From a virus (Duplodnaviria > Heunggongvirae > Uroviricota > Caudoviricetes), in IMG/VR virus record IMGVR_UViG_2880372215_000004: a stretch of DNA of 64,000 bases; one strand, given 5' to 3'. Of the stretch, positions 2,794-19,950 are shown piece after piece. A program made the position numbers and the translations under genes. Each line of letters begins with the position of its first letter. The stretch's first letter is position 1. The notes below the pieces were generated by a model, which had not been told where the DNA came from, did no database searches, and was given only the letters and a program-made list of their open reading frames with translations.

Positions 2794-5386
2794 TTGCATA
2801 TTCCTTAGCCCAGCGGGGCAGTGATAACGTCTTAATAGCTGGCCATTCATCGGTATTGAGGCAGTCAGCCAGGGTTCGCAGATTGCGGTGATATTCCAGC
2901 TGACCTGCCAGTTTTGCTTCTTCGCCCATCATGAAAATTTCAACCGGATAACGTCCGCATTCAATAGTTGTGCTGGCAACCAGAAAAACGAAAGTTGGCT
3001 GCACTCCAAACTGTGCTTCATAACCGTCACTGTAGAATGCATCCTGAACGTGATAGCGGTAGTCGTAATAAGCGGTTTTGAATCGTTGAATATCCGCCGT
3101 AGTTTTCACGTCCATGATCCAGTGAAATTCAGGGATAATTTTGTCCGGACGGCACCGACACAAAATTGCTGTTTCAGGATCTTCCCAGTAAATTGATGAT
3201 TCAGCGTGTCCGGCGCTTTCAACAAGCCATTGCCCCAGCGGCAAAGCCATAACGCTCTGATACATGAGTTCAATTTTCCGGCCTTCTTCGGCAGTGATAA
3301 CCGTTTTTCCTGTGCTTGCGCATTCCCTCAGAAACGCTTTCTCTTCTTCTTTTCCGGAGTTTGTCCGGCGGTTAAATTCAGGTGCTACGATAAAGCGGTT
3401 ACTGAATTCTTCCGGCTCAAGTACCCGGCAGTGGAAAGCGGTTCCTAAATCGAGCGTTTTTGTCTTTGTGGTGTCCACGGGGGCATTTTTACGCCACAAA
3501 TACAGTGCCGGAGTATCAGCAATGTCATCGAGCTGAGACTTACTGACACCGGGACCCGCGTGGTAATTCTCATTCGAAATTCCGTAATAAATACCTGGCT
3601 CTATGTCTTCTACGATTACGGGATCTGCGACTTCGCCAGTTTCATCACTGCAATCGCGATGCGGATCGCTGCCAGCATTCTCATTGTGCGGATGTTCAGC
3701 GCCTTCCATTTCCTCCGGATCATTTTCCTTAGCTTCAACCTGACTCTCTTCATCGAATGTTTCCTGGTATGTTGCGTCGCCCATCACCGCACCACAGTCA
3801 GGGCAGTTATCCCCGCCAGTCTGGCCGCAGGCATTGCAGGCTATTTCCGGTTCCTGTTGCACTACTGGCTCAGGTTGATTCATATCCGGGCTGGTTTTTT
3901 CCGTTTCTGGCTGGTTCTGGTACACACAATCGCGAGTCTGGATCCCCTTTACCCATTTCGGATCGTTCGGGTCGCTAATTCCGTCAACAAATTCACCACG
4001 TGATGCAGCAAGCAATTTATCGGCATCGACAGGATTTTTTGATGGAATGTTTTTCCGGGCTTCATGGAGTTCTGCCCGCAGTTCCTGATATTTCGCATCA
4101 ACAGAATTTACCTGTGACTGAGCATCCAGCGGCTGCGTGTCCTGATGATGTTCAGTTGCGTCCGGTTCCATTGTTTCAGCCTCTCCCTGTTCAACTGCCG
4201 TTGTTCCAGATGGTTGCGGTTTTTCTTCATCATCCTGTTTTCCTTCTTCTGTTACTCGCTGCGGCATCGGGGCAGAGGAGCGACCGCAGGCAATATCCAC
4301 GATTTCCGGATCAGGGTTGGCATGATCGGTTTCAGTCAGTACTTTGTTCAGATATTCAGTGACGTGCGCGGGGATGACCTCGATCCCAATTGGTGCTTCT
4401 TTTACGGACGCAACCACGATGGCGCGGGAATAATCCAGCCCGCCAGGCATGGTGATGAATTTGTCGCGGAAAACAGAAAAGGGCGGTTTATTTTCAGCGA
4501 TAATTTCCTCAATGCGTTTAGCGTGTGCCGGATGAAGGTTATAGATGTCCAGATCCATTGAACGGGCCAGTACGCCAGTGGCTACGTCGCGCGCCAGTGA
4601 CGTCAGATCGTGTACGAAACCTTCGCCGCGATCGGTGAGGTTTCCGCCGCCAGCATTAGCACCGGAAGCCGTGCGAGTGATGTGTGAAACACGATTACCC
4701 TTCATCCACTCTTTTGTCAGCAGTCCTCGATCGGTGTAGTCAGCGTTCAGGTATGCTTCGAAAAAAGCAGTTATCAGTCCCAGGTTTGAATTACCAGGAT
4801 TAGGGAAAACTTTGTCAGTGTCACGAACCAGTTTGTGGAGTTCGCGAATTTCCAGCGGGTCGAGCAGGCTGGTTTTGTGGGAAACAGCCAGGGCAGTAAC
4901 AGCCGGTAGTTCTTCAGCCCGAGCAATGTGTAATGCCTGGAGTCCGTCGCGTGAAACGTGCGTTACCGGTTTTTCGCTGCCGTGTTGAGCAAGCCAACGA
5001 ATGGGCAGTTCCTGGCCAGAAATTGGGAGTAGCATATTCTCCTCAATCTCAGTCATGTCTTCGCCGTTGACGTTGGTATTGCCTTGATAGTGAGCGTTGT
5101 CTGGTGCTGCTCCCGGTTTTAGTTCCCATGTCATGGAGTCTTTGCTGAGTTGATAGCGTTCACTCCAGGTAAAATCGATCTCACCTTCAGCGGGCAGGTC
5201 ATTAACGACAGGAAAATTCGTGGCAACAGCTTTAAAATAGCTGCTCAGTTTTTTACCTGACTTAACGATCAGGTAGTCCAGAGTGGCACAGGTCGATTCA
5301 AAATCGTTGCTTGCCCACAGGACGACGTCAGGTTCACCGGATGATTTTTTCGCTTTCCGTAACAGGAAGAGTGGTTTTGTGCTCAT
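2786..5386 (-). CDS. recE: Exodeoxyribonuclease VIII RecE, 866 aa
   Basis: 866-aa ORF starting [32 protein letters not shown]. The C-terminal nuclease domain precedes recT. Length and sequence match Rac RecE from memory. Confidence 0.95.
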
Positions 5387-5487
5387 TGTTTTTTAACCTC
5401 AACTCAGATTAAAATTCGTTTTGTTCAGTGAATGATCTTGCCGGATACACACTGTTCATAGCCTGCGCCATACGCAGGCTATTTCTT

Positions 5488-5763
5488 TCAGATTTCACCT
5501 TTTAATTTCATTGCAATTAGAGTTGCCAGAAATTCGGCTTTTTTTTCTGTGGGCAGATTCTTTCCGATATGCACCAGGCACATTTTTTTGACACCTTCAT
5601 CAAGTGTTTTTACGTTGCCTGATGGACCATCGATATCAACCACAGTGAATGGGGTTTCTTTATTTTCTGTTTTAATTACGTAGCCAATGCGCTTTCCTTC
5701 CAGATTCACCTCGTGAACAATGTCATCGGTAGTTACAACAGTGGCTTCATAATTGGTAATCAT
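5488..5763 (-). CDS. racC: Rac prophage protein RacC, 91 aa
   Basis: MITNYEATVVTTDDIVHEVNLEGKRIGYVIKTENKETPFTV... recalled as RacC, in the syntenic position upstream of recE. Confidence 0.7.
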   Translation of the reverse strand: MITNYEATVVTTDDIVHEVNLEGKRIGYVIKTENKETPFTVVDIDGPSGNVKTLDEGVKKMCLVHIGKNLPTEKKAEFLATLIAMKLKGEI

Positions 5764-5837
5764 GTTTTTCTCCTTAATTAAGGTTGAGCGAATACCTGCC
5801 ATTTCTGGCATAAATTCAGTTTCGAATAGTCAATTAA

Positions 5838-6008
5838 TTAAAGTTCATGTGCCATCTGGTCTTTTTCGGCACAAGCTTCACTGCAATATTTTCTCGGTTC
5901 GTCTTTTGATAAAATCCCGTGCATGAAGTGAAGCATTCTTTCAATAGCTTTGCTTTCTTCAACGTCTTTTTTGCAAAGGTGGTAAGCACATTTTATTTTC
6001 TTAGTCAT
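5838..6008 (-). CDS. ydaE: Cys-rich small protein YdaE, 56 aa
   Basis: Hand translation gives [56 protein letters not shown]. Below the track size cut-off. Its start overlaps the kilR stop (TGATG). Confidence 0.65.
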   Translation of the reverse strand: MTKKIKCAYHLCKKDVEESKAIERMLHFMHGILSKDEPRKYCSEACAEKDQMAHEL

Positions 6009-6229
6009 CACCATGACTCCGCCTTTACAGGTAAACCATCACGACCGAGGAAGACTTTAATCATGCGGTCAGTAATGCATGTTTTTGTGGTCAGGTTACG
6101 AATATATAGTTTTCGCTTTTTAATATTGTTTGCCGAGGCAATATATGTCCGGCCTTCATGAAGAACATAATCGCCAGGAGTCACACACTGACGTGGTATT
6201 TCATCAGTTCCGAAGTGATGTGCAATCAT
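6008..6229 (-). CDS. kilR: FtsZ-inhibiting killing protein KilR, 73 aa
   Basis: [55 protein letters not shown] matches K-12 KilR from memory. Start at Met5 of the tracked ORF. Confidence 0.85.
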
Positions 6230-6404
6230 AATTATCTCCATTTTTACAAATGAACTTTGTTGATGCGGTGCCTGGTGCCTCCAGGTGACTGCAACCAGTT
6301 AACAATTACAGTCGGCTTTCCCACCCAAACCAATAAGGACTAACATGACTTTTAACTGTGCCACGTGCGCTTAGCCGCATTCACCGCATCACAAAATTCA
6401 CTTT

Positions 6405-6470
6405 AAAAAGGGCGGACATCAGCCGAACTTCAAGAAAAAAACTGATGCCGCCAGGACTACACACAGCAAT
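6405..6470 (-). ncRNA. DicF-like sRNA paralogue (diverged 5' part, conserved terminator hairpin)
   Basis: The minus-strand RNA reads ...GGCGGCAUCAGUUUUUUUCUUGAAGUUCGGCUGAUGUCCGCCCUUUUU, an 11-bp stem plus a U-run. The flanks 6265-6412 are homologous to the dicF-dicB spacer of prophage 2 (59590-59742). The element sits upstream of kilR exactly as dicF sits upstream of dicB. Confidence 0.4.
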
Positions 6471-6670
6471 GTCGTTATTTACAACCGGAGGCGCACTCCC
6501 ACCATTTAAATTTAACAGACAAGACCGACTCTTTATGGATATCGGAAATGCGCCTTCGTGTTGTGCCCGGTTTTATTTCACCACCTCCGGGCTTCGGTGG
6601 TCTCGGCTATACCCCTACAGCGAGAGCTTGTGTTAACATTTCAATACCCTTACAGTTGAGAGTTATTGAT

Positions 6671-7159
6671 ATGTTGGATGTATTTACTCCATTGTTGAAA
6701 CTTTTTGCTAACGAGCCACTCGAAAGACTTATGTATACGATTATCATTTTTGGTCTCACTCTCTGGCTGATACCGAAAGAGTTTACTGTCGCATTCAATG
6801 CTTATACTGAAATACCTTGGCTCTTTCAGATTATCGTTTTTGCCTTTTCTTTCGTGGTCGCCATTTCCTTCTCAAGATTGCGAGCACATATTCAAAAGCA
6901 TTATTCATTACTACCAGAGCAACGAGTATTGCTTCGTTTATCTGAGAAAGAAATCGCTGTATTTAAAGATTTCCTTAAAACAGGAAATCTTATTATCACT
7001 TCTCCTTGCCGTAACCCGGTTATGAAAAAATTAGAACGGAAGGGCATCATTCAACATCAGAGTGATAGCGCAAACTGTTCTTATTATCTCGTCACCGAAA
7101 AATACTCCCATTTTATGAAGTTATTCTGGAACAGCAGGAGTAGACGTTTTAATCGTTAG
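6671..7159 (+). CDS. sieB: Superinfection exclusion protein SieB, 162 aa
   Basis: MLDVFTPLLKLFANEPLERLMYTIIIFGLTLWLIPKEF... matches Rac SieB from memory. Start at the internal ATG of the tracked ORF. Confidence 0.85.
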   Translation: MLDVFTPLLKLFANEPLERLMYTIIIFGLTLWLIPKEFTVAFNAYTEIPWLFQIIVFAFSFVVAISFSRLRAHIQKHYSLLPEQRVLLRLSEKEIAVFKDFLKTGNLIITSPCRNPVMKKLERKGIIQHQSDSANCSYYLVTEKYSHFMKLFWNSRSRRFNR

Positions 7160-7311
7160 CTTACTGTGTGCTTCTCCAACCATCGGCGCGCACCAGTTTC
7201 GGTTTTAAATGTTTTGCTTTTGGTATACGTCATGGCAGTGAACGTTCCATCCTGGTTGGGGAACACGCCGCACACCAGGGATTCGTTGTTGCCGAGGTCG
7301 ATTTTTTGCAT
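7156..7311 (-). CDS. ydaF: DUF1391-type small protein YdaF, 51 aa
   Basis: Hand translation gives MQKIDLGNNESLVCGVFPNQDGTFTAMTYTKSKTFKTETGARRWLEKHTVS*. A paralogue is present at 60988-61140. The tracked + ORF 7166-7384 is its antisense shadow. Confidence 0.7.
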   Translation of the reverse strand: MQKIDLGNNESLVCGVFPNQDGTFTAMTYTKSKTFKTETGARRWLEKHTVS

Positions 7312-7321
7312 TTTGCGAATC

Positions 7322-7456
7322 TCACATCTTGTTGCTACGTATAGCGACTTCTGCCTGCCAGAGATCCCAGTCGTTGCTGCGTAAAGCCTGCACAGCCTGG
7401 TTGTAAGTGATACCGCAACAATCCATCAAATACTGAACTACTTCGTAATGCACCAT
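7322..7456 (-). CDS. ydaG: Small protein YdaG, 44 aa
   Basis: Hand translation gives MVHYEVVQYLMDCCGITYNQAVQALRSNDWDLWQAEVAIRSNKM*. Recalled as Rac YdaG. Confidence 0.65.
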   Translation of the reverse strand: MVHYEVVQYLMDCCGITYNQAVQALRSNDWDLWQAEVAIRSNKM

Positions 7457-7626
7457 CTTATCTATCCCCTTAACGCCGGGTGGCGGAACTAACTGCTGCA
7501 CTGCAAAATTTGAATCCCGCCGTCATGTTCATACGCCTCGGGCTGGCTACTTAACCCCTGACCACTGCCTGGTAACTCGAAGTATTGCCCGGCGTTCTGT
7601 GGGGCGGGGTGGGTTGGTAGGTATAT

Positions 7627-7669
7627 AATGTACTTTGTGTTCATCATTGTAAAGTACTTTAAGTACATT
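7627..7669. promoter_or_regulatory. Candidate OL-type operator cluster / leftward early promoter
   Basis: Inverted pair ATGTACT (7628-7634) and AGTACAT (7662-7668) flank a central AAGTACTT palindrome. The same ATGTACT half-site recurs in the repressor-cro intergenic region. Confidence 0.4.
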
Positions 7670-7743
7670 TTATGTATAAAAAAATGAGACGGGATAAAGT
7701 GAAGCACAAACCCGGAGGGGGACGCTACCGGATTTATGCTGGT

Positions 7744-8163
7744 TTAAGAGGCTTTTTGTTTTTTCTTTCGTGCTAACTCTTCGTAAATTGCATTGTACTT
7801 CTGTTTTTTCTCCTCAAGAGTTTTTAAAAGTTCATCTGTCTCACTGTCAGGGAGCTCGTCCAGAAGGTCAATGATGATTTTTTGTCTTGGATTTAACTCC
7901 TGATAGAAACGTATCTGTCCACTTTCTTCTGTATCCTCTCCCAAAAGATAGGTTGGTGTTGTTCCAATGAGTGTTGCTAATTCCCTTAATTTCTCTCGGC
8001 GAGGAATTGTTTCACCATTAAACCATTTGCTAACCGCTTTTGGTGTTAATTTCATTCGACGGGCAATTTCTGCCTGCCTTCCATGTTGTTCATAACCAGC
8101 GTTTTCACAGGCTAGCGCAAGCCTACTGGCGAACTCTTTACGCGCTTTATCTTCATGAACCAT
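7744..8163 (-). CDS. Prophage repressor, HTH XRE family (RacR/CI-like), 139 aa
   Basis: HTH segment GRQAEIARRMKLTPKAVSKWFNGETIP. Divergent from a cro-like gene. No S24 peptidase domain. Confidence 0.8.
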   Translation of the reverse strand: MVHEDKARKEFASRLALACENAGYEQHGRQAEIARRMKLTPKAVSKWFNGETIPRREKLRELATLIGTTPTYLLGEDTEESGQIRFYQELNPRQKIIIDLLDELPDSETDELLKTLEEKKQKYNAIYEELARKKKQKAS

Positions 8164-8187
8164 AAGTTCAATGATATTCGCTCTTGA

Positions 8188-8218
8188 ATGTACTGTCAGT
8201 TCTGTTATAGCATGTACT
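8188..8218. promoter_or_regulatory. Candidate OR-type operators in the divergent repressor/cro promoter region
   Basis: Two ATGTACT half-sites (8188-8194 and 8212-8218) lie in the 79-bp divergent intergenic region. Confidence 0.4.
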
Positions 8219-8242
8219 CAAAGTTCACATTGTGAGGGTGAT

Positions 8243-8497
8243 ATGAACCAGAAAACACTTGAAGATGTAATCAAAACTGTTCGCGTTTCTGTTGTGGCCG
8301 ACGTTTGTGGTGTCAGCCAAAGAGCAATCTACAAATGGATGGATAACGGTAAATTGCCTCGCACAGAATATACCGGCGAAACAAATTACGCTGAAAAAAT
8401 CGCTCATGCATCAAACGGATTATTTTCTGCCGATGCAATTTTAACTATTGGCAGAAATAAAACTACTACGAAAAAGCTGATGGGAGTTGATTCATGA
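8243..8497 (+). CDS. Cro/YdaS-like HTH regulator, 84 aa
   Basis: MNQKTLEDVIKTVRVSVVADVCGVSQRAIYKWMDNGKLP carries an HTH motif. Divergent from the repressor and overlaps the ydaT start (ATGA). Confidence 0.7.
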   Translation: MNQKTLEDVIKTVRVSVVADVCGVSQRAIYKWMDNGKLPRTEYTGETNYAEKIAHASNGLFSADAILTIGRNKTTTKKLMGVDS

Positions 8498-8916
8498 AAA
8501 TCAAGCATGAGCACATCGAATCAGTGTTGTTAGCCCTGGCAGCCGAAAAAGGGCAGGCGTGGGTCGCTAACGCAATTACTGAAGAATATCTGCGCCAGGG
8601 GGGCGGCGAATTGCCCCTGGTACCAGGCAAGGACTGGAACAATCAGCAGAATATCTATCATCGTTGGTTGAAAGGTGAAACGAATGCGCAAAGGGAAAAA
8701 ATTCAGAAACTGATCCCTGCGGTTCTGGCAATTCTTCCTCGCGAGCTGCGTCACCGACTCTGCATCTTCGATACCCTGGAACGCCGTGCATTACTGGCGG
8801 CACAGGATGCACTGAGTACGGCAATTGATGCGCATGATGATGCAGTCCAGGCCGTTTACCGTAAAGCACATTTCAGCGGCGGCGGTTCTCCTAGCGATTC
8901 TGTCGTAGTGCATTGA
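8494..8916 (+). CDS. ydaT: YdaT (CII-like regulator family), 140 aa
   Basis: MKIKHEHIESVLLALAAEKGQAWVANAITEEYLRQGGGELPLVPGKDW... is near-identical to K-12 YdaT from memory. Confidence 0.85.
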   Translation: MKIKHEHIESVLLALAAEKGQAWVANAITEEYLRQGGGELPLVPGKDWNNQQNIYHRWLKGETNAQREKIQKLIPAVLAILPRELRHRLCIFDTLERRALLAAQDALSTAIDAHDDAVQAVYRKAHFSGGGSPSDSVVVH

Positions 8917-8960
8917 TTGAAATTAATCGTACCGAACTGTTTTGTTCGGTATCAGTTAAA

Positions 8961-9379
8961 TGTAACGCTGCGAGCGTTACAAGGTGAAAACAAATGGCTT
9001 CAAACTGGATAAAGCTCGAAGTTATTACGCCGGATAAGCCGGAAATATTCAGGCTTGCTGAGATTCTGAATATTGATCCAGATGCCGCATTAGGGAAAGT
9101 CATTCGCTTCTGGGCATGGGCGGATCAACAAATGATAGACGGTAACGCAGAGTGTAACGCTCGCGGCGTTACAAAAAGTGCAATAGATCGCATCACTTTT
9201 ATGGCTGGTTTTGCTGATGCGTTAATTCAGGTTGGATGGCTGGTCGAAACTAATGGTGTGTTGTCGCTTCCTAACTTTGAGCGCCATAACGGGAAAAGCT
9301 CTAAAAAACGGGCGGTTACAAACGAGAGAGTAACAAAAATACGAGAACTGAAACGAAAAGGTAACGCTGCCAGCGTTAC
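8961..9379. repeat. Three copies of a GTAACGC-N3-5-GCGTTAC palindrome (candidate replication origin / initiator binding sites)
   Basis: TGTAACGCTGCGAGCGTTACA (8961-8981), TGTAACGCTCGCGGCGTTACA (9153-9173) and GTAACGCTGCCAGCGTTAC (9361-9379). Extra half-sites at 9142-9148 and about 9315-9335. The copies are spaced ~190-210 bp across the 5' half of ydaU. Confidence 0.5.
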
Positions 9380-9782
9380 AAAAACGGATCAAAAAGCGTT
9401 ACCAGAGGAAGAGAAAGAGGAAGATATAAATACTTATCTCCCCCTAAATCCCCCTCGCCAAAAACGAGCGTCTAAAAAATTCGAACCGGAGGCTATCGAG
9501 CTGCCTGACTGGTTGCCGGAAACACTCTGGCATGAGTGGGTTCAGTTCAGGCAGGCATTGCGAAAACCGATTCGAACGGAGCAGGGCGCTAACGGGGCGA
9601 TACGGGAGCTGGAAAAATTCCGCCAGCAGGGTTTTTCACCTGAGCAGGTGATTCGACACAGCATCGCCAATGAATACCAGGGCTTGTTCGCGCCGAAAGG
9701 TGTTCGGCCAGAGACGTTGCTCCGACAGATTAACACCGTCTCGTTTCCGGACAGTGCGATCCCGCCAGGCTTCAGGGGGTAA
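8994..9782 (+). CDS. ydaU: Replication initiator-like protein YdaU, 262 aa
   Basis: MASNWIKLEVITPDKPEIFRLAEILNIDPDAALGKVIRFWAWADQQ. Sits upstream of a DnaC-like loader and contains the palindromic repeats. Confidence 0.65.
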   Translation: MASNWIKLEVITPDKPEIFRLAEILNIDPDAALGKVIRFWAWADQQMIDGNAECNARGVTKSAIDRITFMAGFADALIQVGWLVETNGVLSLPNFERHNGKSSKKRAVTNERVTKIRELKRKGNAASVTKTDQKALPEEEKEEDINTYLPLNPPRQKRASKKFEPEAIELPDWLPETLWHEWVQFRQALRKPIRTEQGANGAIRELEKFRQQGFSPEQVIRHSIANEYQGLFAPKGVRPETLLRQINTVSFPDSAIPPGFRG

Positions 9783-9788
9783 CAGACC

Positions 9789-10535
9789 ATGAAAAATATT
9801 GCGACAGGCGGCGTTCTGGAACGTATCCGCAGACTGGCCCCGCCACATGTAACCGCGCCATTCAGGACGGTGGCGGAGTGGCGCGAGTGGCAACTTGCAG
9901 AAGGCCAGAAACGTTGTGAGGAGATCAACCGTCAGAATCGTCAGTTGCGGGTGGAAAAAATCCTGAATCGCTCCGGCATACAGCCGTTGCACCGCAAATG
10001 CTCGTTTGCGAATTACCAGGTGCAGAACGACGGCCAGCGATACGCGTTGAGTCAGGCGAAATCTATCGCTGACGAACTGGTTACCGGATGCACAAATTTC
10101 GCGTTCAGCGGAAAACCTGGTACCGGAAAAAACCATCTGGCGGCGGCTATCGGGAATCGCCTGCTGAAAGATGGCCAGACAGTGATTGTGGTTACCGTGG
10201 CTGATGTTATGAGCGCCCTGCACGCCAGCTATGACGACGGGCAGTCAGGCGAAAAATTTTTGCGGGAACTGTGCGAAGTTGATCTGCTGGTTCTTGATGA
10301 AATTGGTATTCAGCGCGAGACGAAAAACGAGCAGGTGGTACTGCACCAGATTGTTGATCGCCGGACAGCGTCAATGCGCAGCGTGGGGATGCTGACAAAC
10401 CTGAACTATGAGGCCATGAAAACATTGCTCGGCGAGCGGATTATGGATCGCATGACCATGAACGGCGGGCGCTGGGTGAATTTTAACTGGGAGAGCTGGC
10501 GCCCGAATGTTGGTCAGCCAGGTATTGAGAAGTAA
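9789..10535 (+). CDS. ydaV: DnaC/IstB-like AAA+ helicase loader YdaV, 248 aa
   Basis: Walker [16 protein letters not shown] and Walker B LLVLDEIG. The sequence matches Rac YdaV from memory. Confidence 0.9.
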
Positions 10536-10557
10536 TTTTTACCGGGAGGAAATTTTA

Positions 10558-11319
10558 ATGGAGACCGTTTTTGACGCACTGAAAGCGATGGGAAAAGCCA
10601 CGTCGGTAGAACTGGCTACGCGACTTGATATCAGTCGAGAAGAAGTGCTGAACGAGCTGTGGGAACTGAAAAAGGCTGGCTTCGTTGATAAAAGCGTATA
10701 CACCTGGCGCGTGGCTGATAACAACGTTCAGCAGGAACAGCCAGCGCCGGCAGAGCTGCCGGAAGAAACCACCATGGCAACAGTAGCGAAAATCTCAGAG
10801 TGCGATTTAACCGCGACGATTGAACAACGTGGCCCACAAACGGCGGATGAGTTGGCTACATTGTTCGGTACCACATCACGCAAAGTAGCTTCAACGCTGG
10901 CAATGGCTATCAGCAAAGGACGCCTGATTCGCGTAAACCAGAACGGTAAATTTCGTTACTGCATACCGGGCGATAATTTACCAGCAGAGCCGAAAGCAGC
11001 ATCGGTAGCGGAAACTGATGGTAAGGCCTTTCCTCAGCCCACAGGTGTTGCGTTACCAGTACAGGAGGCTGCAACACAGGAAGATATTAAAACAGAAACG
11101 GTGGCGGACATTGTGCAGTCGCTGCCATCGTTTACTGAAACGCGAGCGGATGACCTGGTTTTACCATCGCTGCATATGGCAAACCGCGAACTGCGTCGGG
11201 CGAAAAATCATGTCCAGAAGTGGGAGCGAGTCTGCGCCGCGCTGCGGGAGCTGAACAAGCACCGGGATATTGTTCGACAGATTTTCGATTCCTCCAGTCG
11301 TATTGTGTCGGAAAAGTGA
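10558..11319 (+). CDS. Hypothetical phage protein with two winged-helix-like segments (YdaW-like position), 253 aa
   Basis: RBS GGGAGGA lies before the ATG. Winged-helix-like segments are [33 protein letters not shown] and [34 protein letters not shown]. Confidence 0.55.
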
Positions 11320-11334
11320 TTGCCGGAGGCACCT

Positions 11335-11757
11335 ATGGCAAAAGTATTTACACCAGAAGAGCGGGAAAAAATTAAAGGGCAGGTTGTTGAACTTGTACGT
11401 CTGAGCGGTCGCGAGACGTTACGGGCTCTGGAGGCTAAAACCGGTGCATCAAGGTATTACATAAGCACTCTCGCCAGAGAACTGGTCGCCAGTGGTGATG
11501 TTTACAATTCAGGCTACGGATTATTCCCGTCTGAGCAGGCGCGTAAAGACTGGCAAAACGCCCGCAAAAAACTATCAAGGGCAAAGGTGAAGAAACCGGT
11601 TGTGGTTGATCCGGATCTTATCTGGTCATTACCAGACGGAGAAATACGCCGCTACGACAGGCGTCTGAACATAATCTGTAGCGAGTGCCGGAAGAGCGAA
11701 GCTATGCAGCGTGTACTGGCTTTCTATCAGGGTAATTTTCAGAAGGTGCTGTTGTGA
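11335..11757 (+). CDS. Hypothetical phage protein, 140 aa
   Basis: ORF from MAKVFTPEEREKIKGQVVELV, co-directional in the early-right operon. No motif recognised. Confidence 0.5.
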   Translation: MAKVFTPEEREKIKGQVVELVRLSGRETLRALEAKTGASRYYISTLARELVASGDVYNSGYGLFPSEQARKDWQNARKKLSRAKVKKPVVVDPDLIWSLPDGEIRRYDRRLNIICSECRKSEAMQRVLAFYQGNFQKVLL

Positions 11758-11862
11758 GCCAAATTAACAATCGGAACTTCGTGAAGAGAAAGCATAATCC
11801 AAATCTGAATAATTAAGTTCAGCACTGTAAATAAAATTTAATCCTTAACTGGAGGTATATTT

Positions 11863-12075
11863 ATGTTAAATACACAGAAAGCCATTAATGCGGAAAAATA
11901 TAACGAGTGGGCAAGAAAATTCTCTGAGCAGATTTTTAAAATTACTGGCGATGAGAATGCGGCAAAAAATGAATTAGAACCGTGGACGCCTGAAGGAGCC
12001 GACCCAAATTATTGCTGGAGGGAGGTTGATCCAGTTGATGCTGCAAATGAAGCTATGAGTTATCACAACGATTAA
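11863..12075 (+). CDS. Hypothetical small phage protein, 70 aa
   Basis: ORF preceded by GGAGGT. Acidic protein with no motif recognised. Confidence 0.45.
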   Translation: MLNTQKAINAEKYNEWARKFSEQIFKITGDENAAKNELEPWTPEGADPNYCWREVDPVDAANEAMSYHND

Positions 12076-12326
12076 TGTCAGGAGGCCGCCCGAAAGGGCG
12101 GTAATGAATGGTCACATTATTTAGAAAAAATATCCGCGAAAGAGTAGAACAACAGAATTTCTGTTTCTCATTCTGTTTATCGTGTTGATGATACCGATAT
12201 CCCCGTTAATCCTAGTCTGGATAATCGGAAAAATAATTGAGCCAGTTATTGAATTGTATAACGACGTGGTATGGGCGTCATTCAACACACTGCACAATAA
12301 AATTAATCCGTATAAGGAAAACTGAT

Positions 12327-12590
12327 ATGGCAACTTTGACAAAAAAAGAACGGGCATGGTTGAACGAATTACAGGAAGTTCTTGATCGCTGTCCATCACC
12401 GAAAAAAATTGGCTTTTACACCATTGGCGATAAAAGCATTTACCTGTATGACCTACGCCGCATGGATGAAATCATGGAGGCTCTTGATAATCGTTCGTCG
12501 ATGGATTGGTGTGTTGCTGTTCATGATATGAATGCAGGGTTTGATGAAAAGATTTTGTTCCCCTCATCAGTTGAAAGCACTGCGGGTTAA
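12327..12590 (+). CDS. Hypothetical phage protein, 87 aa
   Basis: MATLTKKERAWLNELQEVLDRCPSPKKIGFYT. Internal ATG of the tracked ORF, preceded by AAGGAAAA. Confidence 0.5.
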   Translation: MATLTKKERAWLNELQEVLDRCPSPKKIGFYTIGDKSIYLYDLRRMDEIMEALDNRSSMDWCVAVHDMNAGFDEKILFPSSVESTAG

Positions 12591-12600
12591 GGAGTAACAC

Positions 12601-13086
12601 ATGACCACTATTACCAAAGAACGTATTGAATTGTTCATTAAAAATCCGGTTGAAAACGGGCTTACCCGTGGTGAACAAATGGAACTGGCACGGATTGCGC
12701 TGGCATCGCTGGAAGCAGAGCCAGTTGGTGATTTTTATGAATACAAACCGGATGACTGGTAGCAGCGTTCGGCTGGAGATAAAGCGCCAAAATGGACGCC
12801 ACCCTATGCCGTTTTTCCAGCGCCCGTAGTGCCGGAAGAAATGGATTTGCTTACATGCCATCTCGATGGTGTAACTGAAACATATGCTGAGGGATGGAAC
12901 GCTTGCCGCGCTGCCCTGCTTCAGGGCAAAGGGGAGCCCGGGAAACAAGTTCGCGAATTGACAATGCTGGTTAAACAATTGGTTAGTCAACTGAAGAAAG
13001 CGAAACCGGGCTGCAAATTGCCGGATAAAGTGATGGACTACCTGGAGCGAAGCGGACTTATAAGCGTGGAGGATGTTTCACGATGA
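12601..13086 (+). pseudogene. Phage gene interrupted by an in-frame amber codon (53-aa N part, and a C part annotated from 12829)
   Basis: ATG 12601 and the tracked ORF 12829-13086 share one reading frame. They are separated only by TAG at 12760-12762, and no ATG start follows in that frame before 12829. Confidence 0.45.
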
Positions 13087-13476
13087 CCTGGCCTGAAGCA
13101 TTCACAACGGTAGGAATTGCGATGGCGGTGGCGCTGGTTGTGTATTCGATTTGCCGCTGGGGATAAAAACGATTTGCGGGAAAAGGATAGTTAAGTAGAA
13201 TTGCTGCGGGTGCTTGAGGCTATCTGCCTTGGGCATGAACACCAAAGGCAGATAGAGAAAAACCCACCCGACTATAAATCAAAGTGTATTACCCCCATTT
13301 GTTGGACGATGAAATGGGTTTAGTTAACTATGTCGGTATCGACATGACTAAAACAACCTTAAATTGCTCGATTAATAGACAAGTAGTTTTGAAAGATTAA
13401 ATTTATGCGATCCGGTATTTTCAAGGGATAGCCTTTATGAGGTTATCTTATGGGGTTAAAACATCAAGAACAGTTG

Positions 13477-13485
13477 TGTTATAAT
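13477..13485 (+). promoter_or_regulatory. Extended -10 promoter element (TGtTATAAT) upstream of the methyltransferase gene
   Basis: TGTTATAAT at 13477-13485, about 32 nt before the ATG at 13518, in AT-rich DNA. Confidence 0.45.
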
Positions 13486-13517
13486 ACATAGAAACTAATA
13501 AGAGACGTTGCAACTAT

Positions 13518-14669
13518 ATGAATGTAATAGATTTGTTTTCTGGCGTTGGAGGTCTAAGTCTTGGTGCTGCACGTGCTGGATTTGATGTTAAAATGGCAGT
13601 TGAAATTGATCAACATGCTATTAATACTCACGCAATTAATTTTCCAAGAAGTTTGCACGTCCAAGAAGATGTTTCTTTACTAAATGCAGAAATAATTAAG
13701 GGTTTTTTTAAAAACGATATGCCCATAGATGGTATTATTGGCGGTCCTCCGTGCCAAGGATTTAGTTCAATAGGCAAGGGGAATCCTGATGATAGCAGGA
13801 ATCAGCTTTACATGCATTTCTACCGTTTAGTATCAGAATTACAGCCATTATTCTTTTTGGCAGAAAATGTTCCAGGTATTATGCAAGAGAAATATTCTGG
13901 CATTAGAAATAAAGCATTTAATTTGGTTAGCGGTGATTATGATATTCTTGATCCCATCAAGGTAAAAGCATCTGATTATGGTGCTCCAACTATTCGAACT
14001 AGATATTTTTTTATCGGTGTAAAAAAATCATTGAAGCTTGATATTTCAGATGAAGTATTTATGCCTAAAATGATTGATCCGGTTACTGTAAAAGATGCTT
14101 TGTATGGATTACCAGATATTATCGATGCCAATTGGCAATCAGACTCTGAGAGTTGGCGAACAATTAAAAAAGATCGAAAAGGGGGATTTTATGAAAAATT
14201 ATGGGGGCAGATCCCTCGGAATGTTGGTGATACAGAATCGATCGCTAAGTTAAAAAATAATATCATATCTGGATGTACCGGAACATTACATAGCAAAATC
14301 GTCCAAGAGCGTTATGCTTCCTTATCTTTTGGGGAAACTGATAAAATTTCAAGATCTACAAGATTAGATCCAAATGGTTTTTGCCCGACTTTAAGGGCGG
14401 GAACCGCTAGAGATAAAGGAAGCTTTCAAGCCGTCAGGCCGATCCACCCTTATCATCCAAGAGTGATTACACCAAGAGAAGCTGCTAGATTACAAGGCTT
14501 CCCTGATTGGTTTCGCTTTCATGTAACTAAATGGCATAGTTTCAGACAAATAGGAAATAGCGTGTCACCAATAGTTGCTGAATATATATTAAAGGGGCTG
14601 TACAATTTATTAAATAAAAGAGTACAGCCCGAATATTTAAACCATAATTCTTTGGAAGTTAGGGTATAA
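13518..14669 (+). CDS. DNA (cytosine-5)-methyltransferase, 383 aa
   Basis: All diagnostic C5-MTase motifs are present: I DLFSGVGGLSLG, IV GGPPCQGFS, VI FLAENVPG, VIII TIRTRYFFIG, IX RVITPREAARLQGFPDWF and X QIGNSVSP. Confidence 0.95.
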   Translation: MNVIDLFSGVGGLSLGAARAGFDVKMAVEIDQHAINTHAINFPRSLHVQEDVSLLNAEIIKGFFKNDMPIDGIIGGPPCQGFSSIGKGNPDDSRNQLYMHFYRLVSELQPLFFLAENVPGIMQEKYSGIRNKAFNLVSGDYDILDPIKVKASDYGAPTIRTRYFFIGVKKSLKLDISDEVFMPKMIDPVTVKDALYGLPDIIDANWQSDSESWRTIKKDRKGGFYEKLWGQIPRNVGDTESIAKLKNNIISGCTGTLHSKIVQERYASLSFGETDKISRSTRLDPNGFCPTLRAGTARDKGSFQAVRPIHPYHPRVITPREAARLQGFPDWFRFHVTKWHSFRQIGNSVSPIVAEYILKGLYNLLNKRVQPEYLNHNSLEVRV

Positions 14670-15629
14670 CCTATAGTATTTATAATAGTTATCCCGTTCA
14701 TTTTCGTTTAAAGAGAACTCTTCAGCGGCTGCCTGATATGCTTCTTTATCAGGCAGTTTACTATCTAAATTTATCTTTTCTTTAATTGTTAGTGTTGGTA
14801 TTGCTATTTCTTGCACGTCTTCCCAATTTGTTGAATAAAATTGCCAGTTAGAAAGGTCGCATGCCTTAGATAACTCTATATATTCTTGTTCTGAGGAGAA
14901 AAAACCTGATATTGTCAACATGGTATGACTGCCATCATTATATTGATTTAAGGATAATGGGTAATACTGAATCTTATCCTTACGTCCTGAAAGACCACGT
15001 TCTATTGCTGATCTAAAAGCGTTTGTAATAATTCGTATTAAAAGAGCTTTAATCTTACGATCTGAAAGATCTGCATTTGATATCTGAAGATTAAAATCAA
15101 GATACTTTTTCCCAAGCAATGATTTTAATGAATTAATAAAAGCTTCTTTAAAAATATCTAAACTTTCTCCAACTCTACGTTGGTAATAAGAACTAGGATT
15201 TATGGGGAAGGTGACCTTCAAAATATCAAAAGAGCTTACTTTAGTACTTAGTAAGTGTATATCATCTAGATCCGTTTGTATTTTTTTCGGGGAGGCATAG
15301 TCTAACCATGTTATTGATGGTTTAGAAAAACTATAATCAAGAATAAAGTCATGAGCTGATATTAGCTTACAATCAATACAATTATAAGGCAAATTATATT
15401 TTTGTCTGATGTGAGTAGACTCTTGTTCTTCGAGAGAAATCATATCAGAAAGAGCGATACGATTATGCATGATTCTAAAATCTTCAAGCATCGGACCACC
15501 AAAACCTATATATGTATATTCTTGAATATTTAGTCTTTTGCTTAAGAGGTTTAGGCTTTCGAGAAAAATCTCTCTATCAATAGACTTATTATGCCTTAAG
15601 TGATAGGGAATGTATTGTCCAGACATCAC
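14637..15629 (-). CDS. Unknown 330-aa partner of the MORC-like ATPase. The N-terminal half has a Rossmann/SAM-MTase-like motif pattern
   Basis: The GTG/ATG start overlaps the upstream stop (GTGATG), indicating translational coupling. Motifs are YTYIGFGGPMLEDF, MISLEEQES and ITWLDYASP. The C-terminus ends YYKYYRLYPNFQRIMV. The 3' end overlaps the convergent MTase gene by 33 nt. Confidence 0.7.
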   Translation of the reverse strand: MMSGQYIPYHLRHNKSIDREIFLESLNLLSKRLNIQEYTYIGFGGPMLEDFRIMHNRIALSDMISLEEQESTHIRQKYNLPYNCIDCKLISAHDFILDYSFSKPSITWLDYASPKKIQTDLDDIHLLSTKVSSFDILKVTFPINPSSYYQRRVGESLDIFKEAFINSLKSLLGKKYLDFNLQISNADLSDRKIKALLIRIITNAFRSAIERGLSGRKDKIQYYPLSLNQYNDGSHTMLTISGFFSSEQEYIELSKACDLSNWQFYSTNWEDVQEIAIPTLTIKEKINLDSKLPDKEAYQAAAEEFSLNENERDNYYKYYRLYPNFQRIMV

Positions 15630-17017
15630 TTCACCTCTTCAATCACCGTATCAAAGCATTGCATCCCCACATCAGAAGCGCTAGCATCTTCATGTCCAAA
15701 GAAATATTTAGATAAAATTTTAACATCTTCTTTCTCTCTGGTGAAGATTATTCGTACAGTAGAGCTTTTTTTTACTGGGGTAGGCAGCTTAGGTGTATAT
15801 CGCCACTCATTTTTGTTTCTATTAGGGTTGGACCAGTTATTTTTTTTATCTTCTGGAGTTGATTGTGGGGTAATTTCAAATAAAGATTGAGCTTCATGTG
15901 ACTGAGCTGACTTAAGTAATTTTTTCCCTTCTTCAAGATGCTCACCTTTCCACTGATTGGTGAATCGAATAAAATGCATCATCCCTTCAATCATTTTATT
16001 TCGTACATCATTGTACAATGTAGAACTAAGATCGACACCTCGTTTCGTTGTTGTTATTGGTAATTTTTCTGGGTTTTTACTGGTAAAGCGAACAACCCCA
16101 GAAATTGCTATAAATTGGGTATGAAACCTTGGTACATTAGCAAAGCCCCAACCTGTGAGATGTGTCTTATCACAATATAGAACAACGCGGTCATTGCAAA
16201 TGACAGTCCATCCAGCATCATCAGAACTCCTTTTTTCTAAAACATCATCATTGTCATCTTCTAAATTTTTATAGAAGCCAACAACTAAATCGATATCAAC
16301 ATCGTCTATTTTAGCTTTATATATGTATGGTTCTATTTTAGAATGATCAGTTATGATGTTAATCGGATTATGTTCAACAACAACTCCATTTAATTCTATT
16401 TTAAATCCTTTTTGAATAATAAATGACAATGAGTGTTTTATCTGTAAAAAGAGATCAGTAAGATATGTGCTCTCATTAAATTTTTGTGCCACATTAGAAT
16501 GGAGTTTTTTTATCTCTATAGTTGTGCCTGTTGGATTTTTGTTATCATAGTCACTCTCGTGCATCGGTATTTTCCAACCATCACCATCGATCCAATCAGG
16601 TGTTATATCTACAGTGAATGCGCCATCGGGATTATTCGATTGTATTGAGCAATCTCTACCCATTTTAAAAATGGCTCTTTTCATACCAATACCATAGACG
16701 CCAACGGTGCCTTCATTTTCTTCTTCTTTTTGATGGGGTCGTCCCATTTTAAAAGCATATTCTCGGAAGCTTTTAGGGATACCTCCGCAATTGTCTTCTA
16801 TAATAAAGACATCTTTATTAATCGTAAGTTTCGCATAAAATCCTTCATATGGTTTTGAAGTTTTTTTTGTGTCTTTTATTGTACGTAAAGCCCCATCGAC
16901 GCAGTTATCAAGCAGATCAAGTATGGCATCGTTTAAGTCGATATCTCGAGTTAGCATACTTACAAAAAATCTTTTACTAGGACTAAAGTCTGCTGTTGGA
17001 GTCGTGTTCTCAGTCAT
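15626..17017 (-). CDS. MORC-like GHKL (Bergerat-fold) ATPase, 463 aa
   Basis: N-box DLLDNCVDGA, G1 box IIEDNCGGIP and G2 box GVYGIGMKRAIF. An S5-like transducer segment follows: GWTVICNDRVVLYCDKTHLTGWG...FIAISGVVRFTS...LPITTTKRGVDLSS. Confidence 0.85.
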   Translation of the reverse strand: MTENTTPTADFSPSKRFFVSMLTRDIDLNDAILDLLDNCVDGALRTIKDTKKTSKPYEGFYAKLTINKDVFIIEDNCGGIPKSFREYAFKMGRPHQKEEENEGTVGVYGIGMKRAIFKMGRDCSIQSNNPDGAFTVDITPDWIDGDGWKIPMHESDYDNKNPTGTTIEIKKLHSNVAQKFNESTYLTDLFLQIKHSLSFIIQKGFKIELNGVVVEHNPINIITDHSKIEPYIYKAKIDDVDIDLVVGFYKNLEDDNDDVLEKRSSDDAGWTVICNDRVVLYCDKTHLTGWGFANVPRFHTQFIAISGVVRFTSKNPEKLPITTTKRGVDLSSTLYNDVRNKMIEGMMHFIRFTNQWKGEHLEEGKKLLKSAQSHEAQSLFEITPQSTPEDKKNNWSNPNRNKNEWRYTPKLPTPVKKSSTVRIIFTREKEDVKILSKYFFGHEDASASDVGMQCFDTVIEEVK

Positions 17018-17079
17018 AATTTACTCTCTATGTGTTTGGGAAAATAAATACCTTAAGTGCAAATTGTTGATTTTAAACG

Positions 17080-17093
17080 CTTCGCATGCGAAG
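17080..17093. promoter_or_regulatory. Perfect 14-bp palindrome CTTCGCATGCGAAG in the promoter region of the MORC operon (operator candidate)
   Basis: Lies 63-76 nt upstream of the start codon at 17017. Flanked by GTTGA/TCAAC arms. A second palindrome, AATAACATATGTTATT, is at 17192-17207. Confidence 0.35.
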
Positions 17094-17516
17094 TCAACGA
17101 TGTTAAGAAAGAAAGTGCATGTGATCTAACAGTATGTTTTTAAAAAAAGATTAGCTTTATGAGAATTCAGGACTGAATCCCGTGAGAGGAAAATAACATA
17201 TGTTATTGTTGCATTGCTGTGTTGTTTGGGATTTGTTGCACCATTCTGGCGTTGGTATATCTAGTTCGTTGTTCATTTTGTTAATTGTACAACAGGCAGA
17301 CAACAGAGAGCTTTTAGCCTAGTTAGCTTACGAAATTAAACAACTAAGATTATCGGCGGGGAGTGGTCACCGCTACTCTTTGGCTAGGAGACTTCAACGC
17401 AACCGCACACAACCAGCTTCGGCGGGTTTTGTTTTTTCCTGGCATTCTGGTTTACAATTTGCGTGCTAGCTTGAACAACTGGCATCTGCTGCACTGCGCC
17501 ATCGAGAGATTGAGAA

Positions 17517-18116
17517 ATGGCGCATATACAACTGGTCAAACAAACTTCTTCTGGTTTACTTCTCCCGGCGACGCCGGAGAGTTGCGATTTTCTGCATCAA
17601 ATCAAAATAGGTGAGTGGATACACGCAGATTTTAAGCGTGTGCGTAACTACGCATTCCACAAGCGTTTTTTCAAACTCCTGCAACTGGGATTCGATTACT
17701 GGACTCCGGTCGGTGGGGCGATCACGCCTCGCGAACGAGAACTGCTGTCTGGTTTCGTTGATTACCTGTGCGAATCAGTTGGTCGGGAACACACGCCAGC
17801 CCTGAGTGATGCCGCAGAGCAATACCTTAACACCGTTGCGACTCGTAGAACCCGGGATACGGCGTTGCTAAAGTCGTTTGAGGCTTTCCGCGAGTGGGTA
17901 ACCATTCAGGCCGGATTTTACACCGAGCATATTTATCCGGACGGTAGCCGTGGGCGTCGGGCAAAATCCATCGCTTTTGCGAATATGGACGAAGTCGAGT
18001 TTCAGCAGGTTTATAAATCTGTACTGAATGTGCTGTGGAACTGGATTCTGTTCCGTAAATTCTCCTCTCAGGAGGAAGTTGAAAATGTGGCCGCACAACT
18101 ACTGGAGTTTGCGTAA
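17517..18116 (+). CDS. DUF1367-family nin-region protein, 199 aa
   Basis: MAHIQLVKQTSSGLLLPATPESCDFLHQIKIGEWIHADFKRVRNYAFHKRFF is recalled as the lambdoid DUF1367 family. It precedes a ybcO-like gene. Confidence 0.7.
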   Translation: MAHIQLVKQTSSGLLLPATPESCDFLHQIKIGEWIHADFKRVRNYAFHKRFFKLLQLGFDYWTPVGGAITPRERELLSGFVDYLCESVGREHTPALSDAAEQYLNTVATRRTRDTALLKSFEAFREWVTIQAGFYTEHIYPDGSRGRRAKSIAFANMDEVEFQQVYKSVLNVLWNWILFRKFSSQEEVENVAAQLLEFA

Positions 18117-19096: not shown

Positions 19097-19172
19097 GGCC
19101 CTTTAGCTCAGTGGTGAGAGCGAGCGACTCATAATCGCCAGGTCGCTGGTTCAAATCCAGCAAGGGCCACCA
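19097..19172 (+). tRNA. ileZ: tRNA with CAU anticodon, ileX/ileZ-like (Ile2, or Met)
   Basis: 76-nt cloverleaf GGCCCTT...AAGGGCCACCA with anticodon loop CTCATAA. Closely resembles E. coli ileX and the Stx-phage ileZ from memory. Confidence 0.85.
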
Positions 19173-19272
19173 TCACAAACCGCCATTAGCTTATCAGGAA
19201 GAGCAGACGACACCATAACAGGGTTGTTGGTGCGGGGGCGGGTCCCCGATGGCGGTCCATTATCGGTATTCT

Positions 19273-19349
19273 GCGTTGTTAGCTCAGCCGGACAGAGCAA
19301 TTGCCTTCTAAGCAATCGGTCAGTGGTTCGACTCCACTACAACGCGCCA
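19273..19349 (+). tRNA. tRNA-Arg (UCU), reads rare AGA/AGG codons
   Basis: 77-nt cloverleaf: acceptor GCGTTGT/ACAACGC, anticodon arm ATTGC-CTTCTAA-GCAAT, T arm AGTGG-TTCGACT-CCACT, 3' GCCA. Confidence 0.85.
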
Positions 19350-19362
19350 CACTTATTTTCCA

Positions 19363-19387
19363 GGCTCGCTTCGGCGGGCCTTTTTTG
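19363..19387 (+). terminator. Rho-independent terminator after the tRNA pair
   Basis: GGCTCGC-TTCG-GCGGGCC followed by TTTTTTG. Confidence 0.6.
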
Positions 19388-19518
19388 TATCTGCGCCACG
19401 CCCGGCGCATATCAACCACAGAGCCTTTCGGGGGTGAGCTTACGGAGTGGTCAGTGTGACTTTCTCTGTGGGCAGATCGCTCCCGGGCGTTGGCTCACCC
19501 ACCCAAAGGAACGTCACG

Positions 19519-19950
19519 ATGTTTGGAATCTTCAAAAAGAAAACCCGCAGAGCGGCAGCGGAAATTAAAAAGTTTGAGAAACGCGATCTGGCACAGGCGG
19601 TGATTAACGCTGCATACCTGGTGGCCTATGCAGATGGTGAATGCGAGGCATCCGAGAAAGCGAAGATCGAACAGGTCTTACGTAATCAGCCTGCGTTGTC
19701 TGCGTTTACCTCGGAAATTAATGCGATTAGCGCAACTATTATCGGTCAGCTGGATACCAATTTTAAAATTGGTCGTCGTGCCGCGTTACGCGAGATTGAG
19801 GATGTGAAACACGATACGCGTGAAGCGGAAGATGTGCTGGATGTGGCGGTGGCCATTGCGGAGGCAGACGGCGAAATTGAGCCGGAAGAGCGCAAGGTGC
19901 TGGAAGAGATTGCCGGTGTTCTGGGTCTTCGTCTGGAGAATCACCTGTGA
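19519..19950 (+). CDS. TerB-like (tellurite-resistance TerB family) protein, 143 aa
   Basis: MFGIFKKKTRRAAAEIKKFEKRDLAQAVINAAYLVAYADGECEASEKAKIEQVL...AVAIAEADGEIEPEERKVLEEIAG. The paired ADGE motifs are typical of TerB. Confidence 0.65.
   Translation: MFGIFKKKTRRAAAEIKKFEKRDLAQAVINAAYLVAYADGECEASEKAKIEQVLRNQPALSAFTSEINAISATIIGQLDTNFKIGRRAALREIEDVKHDTREAEDVLDVAVAIAEADGEIEPEERKVLEEIAGVLGLRLENHL

Follow-up and report, generated by a model that had tools for sequence, protein, structure and literature searches.

Gene neighbourhoods in which a prokaryotic MORC-type ATPase stands beside a DNA cytosine methylase (MORC+DCM) were predicted to be restriction-modification (R-M)-like systems in a purely computational study that contained no experiments (Iyer et al., 2008; PMC2292703). 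The initial annotation of the DNA considered here had invoked that prediction, and the paper bears it out. This DNA, a stretch of 64,000 nucleotides (IMG/VR record IMGVR_UViG_2880372215_000004; hereafter, at its full length, the window), is prophage Sp10 of Escherichia coli O157:H7, and the element of interest is a cassette of three genes that encode: (i) a C5-cytosine methyltransferase (C5-MTase); (ii) a MORC-type ATPase with GHKL and S5 domains; and (iii) a member of the protein family Methyltransf_35. The module formed by these three genes is widespread and horizontally mobile, and the cassette represents one of its copies.

Closest described systems

The prokaryotic MORC and paraMORC neighbourhoods of Iyer et al. 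resemble the cassette in several respects: (i) they combine a GHKL+S5 ATPase bearing the MORC S5 motif with a C5-methylase and, often, Vsr; (ii) their distribution is sporadic and laterally mobile; and (iii) a minority with methylases but no helicase was explicitly noted (PMC2292703). Since MORC+DCM(+Vsr) neighbourhoods without helicases were already in that paper, Pfam and PHROG families exist and a structure (3G7U) has been solved, the word "undescribed" in the initial annotation was too strong. On the other hand, the published model relies on superfamily II helicases and nucleases, and the Sp10 cassette has neither; an obligate Methyltransf_35 partner is not named in the accessible part of the paper's text, and the O157 genes do not appear in the accessible part of its supplement.

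Class-1 DISARM (DrmD, DrmMI, DrmA, DrmB, DrmC) is also a methylation-linked defence system, its PLD nuclease DrmC is dispensable (10.1101/2021.12.28.474362), and a sister version of the ATPase-Methyltransf_35 pair lies inside DISARM operons. However, neither the cassette nor its flanks contain drmA (helicase), drmB (DUF1998), drmC (PLD) or drmD; the core genes drmA, drmB and drmC are present only at the sister-subfamily loci (L099 and L175-L177), and the DISARM models of PADLOC match only the methyltransferase of the cassette. The characterised Serratia class-1 DISARM, in turn, comprises six genes and has no such pair (10.1101/2021.12.28.474362).

BREX likewise tells self from non-self by methylation and lacks a dedicated restriction nuclease. 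In BREX, both a methyltransferase-fold protein and an ATPase are required for exclusion. The cassette differs from it in that homologues of PglZ, BrxC and BrxL are absent (no PADLOC matches), the ATPase is of the GHKL/MORC type instead of the AAA+/P-loop type, and the self mark would come from a separate C5-MTase. The HEF_HK/Response_reg_2 paraMORC systems follow a similar gene order, with a C5-MTase, a GHKL protein (HATPase_c_3), a small partner and Vsr in succession (Bellieny-Rabelo et al., 2021; PMC8011034). But in these the partner is Response_reg_2 (PF19192) and the ATPase carries HEF_HK (PF19191), and neither domain was found in the cassette by the Pfam scan.

The eukaryotic proteins MORC2, MORC3 and SMCHD1 are the best structural matches of the predicted model of the cassette ATPase. 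Eukaryotic MORCs are functionally tied to DNA methylation and silencing, and ATP-dependent clamping and compaction of DNA is reported for MORC2 (PMC12216690). Nevertheless, the cassette ATPase has no CW, coiled-coil or hinge domains and only about 15% sequence identity to them, whereas its C-terminal helical region is specific to bacteria and its partner adopts a methyltransferase fold.

As for Type II R-M, the cassette supplies a cognate DNA methyltransferase (PF00145, PADLOC MTase_II, PCQ and ENV motifs), and no nuclease domain was detected in its proteins by Pfam, NCBIfam, PADLOC or PHROGs. For want of a nuclease, the cassette does not qualify as classic R-M. PADLOC-DB v2.0.0, with its HEC and PDC candidates included, contains no family that matches either the ATPase or Methyltransf_35 at E values up to 0.1, and no experimental study of this pair was found in the literature, in agreement with the earlier statement that no characterised system of this architecture was known. 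The pair also goes unmentioned in the accessible texts on DefensePredictor (PMC13092281) and of the preprints on "genetically embedded" PADLOC systems (10.1101/2024.01.29.577857) and the YprA helicase (PMC12458937). The work on WonAB/VcSduA (PMC12137116), considered for its mention of GHKL, is unrelated: it deals with an ABC ATPase with a nuclease and with a GHKL-Shedu fusion. The trio does not fit Type II R-M, DISARM, HEF_HK or any PADLOC v2.0.0 family. In kind we would group it with methylation-linked immunity, foreshadowed by prediction, uncharacterised and of unusual effector composition.

The cassette of prophage Sp10

The region 13100-17400 of the window is 100% identical to Sp10 of strain Sakai and to EDL933, and the three genes are ECs_1953-1955 of Sakai and the corresponding genes of EDL933 (100% identity). 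The elements of the insert, in coordinates of the window, are the following:

13267-13517, plus strand: left end of the insert and upstream region of the C5-MTase gene; phage homology ends at ~13266 and GC content drops from here
13456-13485, plus strand: promoter-like site TTAAAA-18-TGnTATAAT upstream of the C5-MTase gene (consensus match only)
13518-14669, plus strand: open reading frame (ORF) of the C5-MTase, ECs_1953, 383 amino acids
14637-14669: overlap (33 nucleotides) of the convergent 3' ends of the C5-MTase and Methyltransf_35 genes
14637-15629, minus strand: ORF of Methyltransf_35 (PF20553), ECs_1954, 330 amino acids
15626-17017, minus strand: ORF of the MORC-type GHKL+S5 ATPase, ECs_1955, 463 amino acids
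17018-17467, minus strand: upstream region of the ATPase operon and right end of the insert; phage homology is back at 17468-17517
17097-17070, minus strand: promoter-like site TTGACT-16-TAAAAT upstream of the ATPase operon (consensus match only)

The arrangement reported initially, a C5-MTase gene convergent with a two-gene operon on the minus strand and ORFs of 383, 330 and 463 amino acids, was recovered, and Pfam matches mark the three ORFs as real genes and not chance reading frames (the RefSeq start of ECs_1954 lies one codon later, which gives 329 amino acids). At the junction of the two minus-strand genes, GAGGTGAAGTGATG, the stop and start codons overlap; the overlap of ECs_1955 and ECs_1954 falls at GTGAAGTGATG, with GAGG eight nucleotides upstream of the ATG. 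This overlap fits the translational coupling that had been proposed. Transcripts of ECs1954 and ECs1955 have been detected in microarrays of the Sakai lysogen, where their expression changes during growth transitions (-2.6 and -3.2) were significant, parallel and assigned to one cluster (PMC2241611).

The insert measures ~4.2 kb and has a GC content of 0.352 (13267-17467), against 0.48 and 0.52 in the adjoining 5 kb flanks; the G+C counts first given, 17 of 60 nucleotides inside the block (15001-15060) and 32 of 60 outside it (10201-10260), are exact. Replication genes lie to its left and DUF1367, YbcO and antiterminator genes to its right, that is, in a nin-type position, and the homology with Stx and lambdoid relatives breaks off at ~13266 and is regained at ~17468-17517. 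These observations support a horizontally acquired, moron-type cassette in a lambdoid prophage, as initially annotated. The insert is not bordered by direct or inverted repeats such as would mark off a transposable unit. The full cassette occurs in 171 of 5,426 complete E. coli genomes, mainly O157:H7 and O111 Shiga toxin-producing strains, always chromosomal, in single copy and with at least 99% identity. A DNA-level search of the phage collection returned no record with the cassette, its sole match being a 166-nucleotide segment of the left flank.

The three proteins

ECs_1955 matches PF13589 (E 2.9e-09), and the only domains found in it by the Pfam scan were HATPase_c_3/HATPase_c. All four ATP-binding motifs of the GHKL domain (D34..N38, D75-NCGG-I, G106-x-YGIG and G164-T165) show at least 95% conservation among 81 sequences, as does the lysine of TTTKRG; the general-base position is occupied by Asp, where Glu is the usual residue. 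After the GHKL domain comes an S5-fold domain in which G269-W-T-V-I-C-N-D-R277-V-V fits GhXhhpXXRhl, the motif that defines MORCs in Iyer et al. (2008; PMC2292703), with G269, W270, T271, C274, N275, D276, R277 and V279 at least 95% conserved. A single-sequence search of Protein Data Bank (PDB) chains gave nothing useful, and the family profile run against all PDB sequences retrieved only MORC3 and MORC4, weakly (E 0.03-0.17). The predicted structure aligns with MORC3, MORC2 and SMCHD1 over 280-308 residues and appears nearer to MORC and SMCHD1 than to MutL. The designation "MORC-like" is therefore justified by the GHKL motifs, the fit to the S5 motif and the MORC profile matches, and the modelled fold agrees with it. 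Membership in MZA was considered and rejected, as NCBIfam gave only sub-threshold DpiB and MzaB matches for ECs_1955.

The second product of the operon, whose identity the initial annotation gave as unknown, is assigned to Pfam family PF20553, Methyltransf_35 (E 2e-89; 300.4 bits against a cut-off of 27; profile positions 1-308 of 309), and structural comparison gives it a class-I S-adenosylmethionine (SAM)-methyltransferase fold. The earlier remark that the operon proteins show no effector motif thus stands as regards nucleases and helicases, but not for this protein, whose methyltransferase fold is recognisable. In 79 diverse homologues the Gly-rich motif I, E67 (motif II), W-L-D110-Y111 (motif IV) and Y230/D232/E284 are near-invariant; this conservation of SAM-binding and catalytic-type residues argues, at the sequence level, for a working active site. 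The closest structural neighbours are the RNA methyltransferases RsmD, Trm1, RlmI, Erm, TrmN and Trm14, with O-methyltransferases ranking below the RNA N-methyltransferases. The RefSeq name of ECs_1954 is "O-methyltransferase" and the Pfam name also carries the "O-"; since the top neighbours are RNA N-methyltransferases (RsmD, Trm1, Erm, TrmN), this label is unsupported. The family counts 2,213 representatives at 50% identity (E at most 0.001). PDB chains gave nothing useful with either the single sequence or the family profile, the NCBIfam scan found no family for it, and both ECs_1954 and ECs_1955 fall in PHROG families without assigned function. A PD-(D/E)xK nuclease reading of D110...D135-x-x-K138 was rejected on account of its non-canonical spacing and the clear methyltransferase fold.

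ECs_1953 is a standard C5-MTase (PF00145, E 2.6e-61; PADLOC MTase_II, E 2e-98), and its residues 1-367 are identical to the solved structure PDB 3G7U ("Cytosine-specific methyltransferase"). Conservation of at least 95% among 69 linked homologues extends to P78-C79-Q80, E116-N117-V118 and a large part of the target-recognition region, in which the linked methylases have in common a distinctive conserved segment, PT(L/I)RAGT...GS(F/Y)xAxRPIH. Judging by its motifs, the catalytic core is intact. No functional study of ECs_1953 and no known target sequence for it were found in the literature.

Conservation of the trio

When one genome per species was scanned, the ATPase was found in 440, and the best 80 loci, from many bacterial phyla and one archaeon, were analysed together with a viral set of 73 IMG/VR contigs. 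The co-conservation on which the initial proposal depended is evident in both sets: Methyltransf_35 comes directly after the ATPase gene in 78 of the 80 genomes and 70 of the 73 viral contigs, and a C5-MTase gene is adjacent in 68 and 72, respectively. In the genome set, the coding ends of ATPase and Methyltransf_35 usually overlap or abut. The most frequent arrangement has all three genes on a single strand in the order MTase-ATPase-partner; the convergent layout of E. coli is seen in 7 of the 80 genomes and is dominant in the viral contigs, with the overlapping version also present in Enterobacter, Azoarcus and many of these contigs. The three contigs without Methyltransf_35 carry a longer ATPase paralogue.

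In the genome set, Vsr is linked at ~35 loci and an HhH-GPD glycosylase at 8 (together ~43 of 80), which indicates that 5-methylcytosine (5mC) is really produced. Apart from Vsr, the survey of neighbouring genes found no nuclease or helicase conserved beside the trio. The Spearman correlation of pairwise identities is 0.81 between ATPase and partner, as against 0.29 between ATPase and MTase, so ATPase and Methyltransf_35 constitute a co-evolving core and the methylase is more exchangeable.

An MTase gene is missing from 12 of the 80 loci, 11 of which are cyanobacterial, some of them located between ndhF and ndhD. Cyanobacterial pairs with no C5-MTase within ~8 kb are found at L003, L004 and L012 (~3700-11600), as well as at L013, L019, L022, L026, L029, L035, L045, L054, L065 and L079; in Scytonema, the pair is wedged between genes for NDH-1 antiporter-like subunits. 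This situation suggests a chromosomally fixed, possibly domesticated version of the pair.

Mobile elements, DISARM operons and decay

The cassette is carried by different kinds of mobile elements: (i) in Yersinia enterocolitica, it occupies the same nin-type position in a different lambdoid prophage; (ii) in Enterobacter, it sits at a prophage end; (iii) in Serratia, it lies on an island along with an HNH_2 gene, a gene for a second GHKL protein of 608 amino acids, Dcm and toxin-antitoxin genes; and (iv) in the Pseudomonas Pf inovirus PfAC20 (L098, PP058144.1, 13.6 kb), the trio is found at 280-3711. The order in PfAC20 is ATPase, Methyltransf_35, C5-MTase, next to the repressor/excisionase region, and this phage has another, shorter ORF whose annotation likewise reads DNA cytosine methyltransferase.

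Class-1 DISARM operons of Microvirga, Ralstonia, Laribacter and Archangium contain a sister subfamily of the pair, placed between DrmMI and DrmA:

L099, 449-12831: DISARM operon with embedded pair
L175, L176 and L177, ~4200-17600: DISARM operons with embedded pairs

Relative to E. coli, the identity of this subfamily is 38% for the ATPase and 28% for Methyltransf_35; its Methyltransf_35 proteins share 76-92% identity across the four distant taxa. In Laribacter and Archangium, the DISARM arrays start with Dcm-Vsr. The embedded pair has no match in PADLOC v2.0.0 at E values up to 1e-5. Its position inside DISARM operons supports a link to defence.

A longer GHKL paralogue, of 563-608 amino acids, adjoins a C5-MTase and sometimes Vsr or HNH_2, and lacks Methyltransf_35. 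It was located at the following loci, and also at L167 and L170:

L092, 11672-13498: longer GHKL paralogue
L168, 5965-7686: longer GHKL paralogue
L032, 11752-13440: longer GHKL paralogue
L040, 10499-12313: longer GHKL paralogue

Its C-terminal ~200 residues match PD-Lambda-5_A models of PADLOC, with E values down to 4e-23, and it may correspond to the paraMORC1 of Iyer et al.

Decay of the module is asymmetric. Methyltransf_35 has been inactivated independently, with an intact C5-MTase, at three loci: it is frameshifted at L024 (9440-10442) and L123 (7389-8382), where MTase and ATPase are intact, and it is interrupted by IS66 on pSymA of Sinorhizobium meliloti (L174, 2656-12960), where Dcm and Vsr remain. 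None of the 153 loci showed a disruption of the MTase or the ATPase. The MTase is missing from just one of the 172 E. coli genomes that carry the cassette, O157:H7 F6294 (L173, NZ_CP038372.1, 3867-4369), in which a single deletion took the MTase together with the C-terminal two-thirds of Methyltransf_35 and left the ATPase gene intact. Such an asymmetry is expected if Methyltransf_35 is costly or toxic and the MTase protective.

Proposed mechanism and alternative explanations

The reading that we favour, with about an even chance of being right, is that the trio is a nuclease-free, methylation-linked conflict system, that is, a defence or addiction module whose logic is related to that of R-M, BREX and DISARM. 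In such a system, the ATPase and Methyltransf_35 would form a complex acting as sensing or effector unit. By analogy with eukaryotic MORCs, the ATPase might dimerise with ATP around DNA, and Methyltransf_35 could serve as a reader that flips bases or else place a chemical mark on nucleic acid. Methylation by the linked MTase would exempt host DNA from attack, and incoming unmethylated DNA would be clamped, silenced or damaged; on a prophage, the cassette would be a moron that protects the lysogen and stabilises the prophage. It is a more tentative proposal, and a doubtful one, that a MORC ATPase with a methyltransferase-fold subunit restricts or silences DNA devoid of the linked mark and leaves it uncut, by means of ATP-driven clamping and compaction or of a damaging or blocking methyl group. 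As for the defence role put forward in the initial annotation, it gains from the sister pair in DISARM operons; the function itself we infer.

Several observations weigh against a conflict system. The lack of any nuclease or helicase that regularly accompanies the trio excludes classic restriction and leaves the effector step to guesswork; besides, no phenotype is known for any member of the module. EDL933 carries the cassette, yet the resistance to lytic BASEL phages was mostly attributed to OI-172 (PMC13463889). In 11 cyanobacterial genomes the pair is present with no MTase within ~8 kb, so it is tolerated without a linked methylase. The upstream methylase of the DISARM arrays is of the N6-adenine type, and the C5-MTase found nearby shares only 25% identity with that of E. 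coli and has an unrelated recognition region, all of which argues against a strict reader of cognate 5mC sites. The 135 randomly sampled neighbours of the genomic loci were mostly housekeeping and few were defence-like (a weak test of defence-island enrichment), and the decay asymmetry amounts to only 3-4 events.

Some of the same evidence could be read in terms of modification only: the ATPase and Methyltransf_35 would aid or extend it, by processive loading of the C5-MTase or by adding a second mark (m4C, m6A or m2G), so that host or phage DNA would be better protected (anti-restriction or epigenetic regulation) and foreign DNA would not be targeted. Such a helper role would suit a Methyltransf_35 that resembles an active nucleic-acid methyltransferase of the amino-MTase type, a pair that usually comes directly after a DNA methyltransferase gene (Dcm-ATPase-partner or DrmMI-ATPase-partner), the frequency of orphan methylases in phages, the lack of a nuclease and the more complete methylation obtained with the whole Serratia class-1 DISARM system (10.1101/2021.12.28.474362). 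It seems to us rather unlikely, however, for the repeated inactivation of Methyltransf_35 with retention of the MTase fits a costly effector better than a helper, sporadic cross-phylum spread on mobile elements and embedding in DISARM are typical of conflict systems, and in cyanobacteria there is no linked MTase that the pair could assist. That several lineages have lost Methyltransf_35 also fits a toxic effector of abortive infection, in which the ATPase would sense foreign or unmethylated DNA and Methyltransf_35 would then methylate rRNA or tRNA, so that translation stops and the cell is sacrificed. The RNA methyltransferases among its closest structural neighbours and the absence of a DNA-cleaving component speak in favour of this scenario, which we nonetheless hold to be quite improbable: likeness of fold cannot separate RNA from DNA substrates, since DNA amino-MTases have the same core; DNA is suggested as the site of action by the constant association with DNA methylases, Vsr and DISARM; and the Pfam scan of ECs_1954 detected no RNA-binding domain.

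It is very improbable that the module serves DNA repair, with a MutL-like GHKL ATPase that stimulates Vsr-type T:G repair after deamination of 5mC and so cuts the mutational cost of a mobile Dcm. Vsr or the HhH-GPD glycosylase does lie in the operon at the loci counted above, the stimulation of Vsr by E. coli MutL is known (PMC2715241), and Iyer et al. raised the occasional recruitment of such ATPases to repair (PMC2292703). But about half of the loci, the Sp10 cassette included, are without a linked Vsr, the modelled ATPase is structurally nearer to MORC/SMCHD1 than to MutL, and repair would explain neither what the invariably linked Methyltransf_35 does nor why the pair occurs inside DISARM operons.

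Neighbouring features of the insert

At the left edge, 13208-13332, Rfam sok (RF01794) scores 50.2 bits, below the gathering score of 59, as a truncated hok/sok-type locus, and 13100-13266 is 91-95% identical to the sokW-annotated region of phage 933W. In the related phage PP818812.1, a hok toxin gene lies at the spot where the cassette now sits, and hence this position looks like a hot-spot for morons. At the right edge, ~100 nucleotides immediately upstream of the DUF1367 gene (17394-17492) share ~90% identity with stretches labelled "mobile element protein" in three E. coli phages (Evi, vB_EcoS-640R1 and vB_EcoS-813R8), and may be the remnant of an insertion sequence. Outside the cassette, 3' of the antiterminator gene, ~19097-19950 (coordinates converted from the Sakai annotation, L001) contains tRNA-Ile (CAT), tRNA-Arg (TCT) and a TerB/TciA-like gene.

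Significance

Should the trio serve defence, the methylation-gated immune systems would gain a widespread family, one whose effector would be a MORC ATPase with a methyltransferase-fold protein rather than a nuclease. A MORC protein that restricts or silences DNA and does not cut it would, if real, be a new effector principle for methylation-based immunity. The pair also recurs inside DISARM operons, and the presence of the cassette in two of the best-studied pathogen genomes (Sakai and EDL933) makes these proposals immediately testable.

Eukaryotic MORCs are thought to derive from bacterial systems of this sort (Iyer et al., 2008; PMC2292703). If the proposed mechanism is true, the trio would be a living model of the ancestral coupling between MORC and DNA methylation that is seen in eukaryotic silencing. 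An account of what a bacterial MORC does beside a cytosine methylase would open the origin of MORC-dependent, methylation-linked silencing to experiment, and the trio may show how the link between MORC proteins and DNA methylation began.

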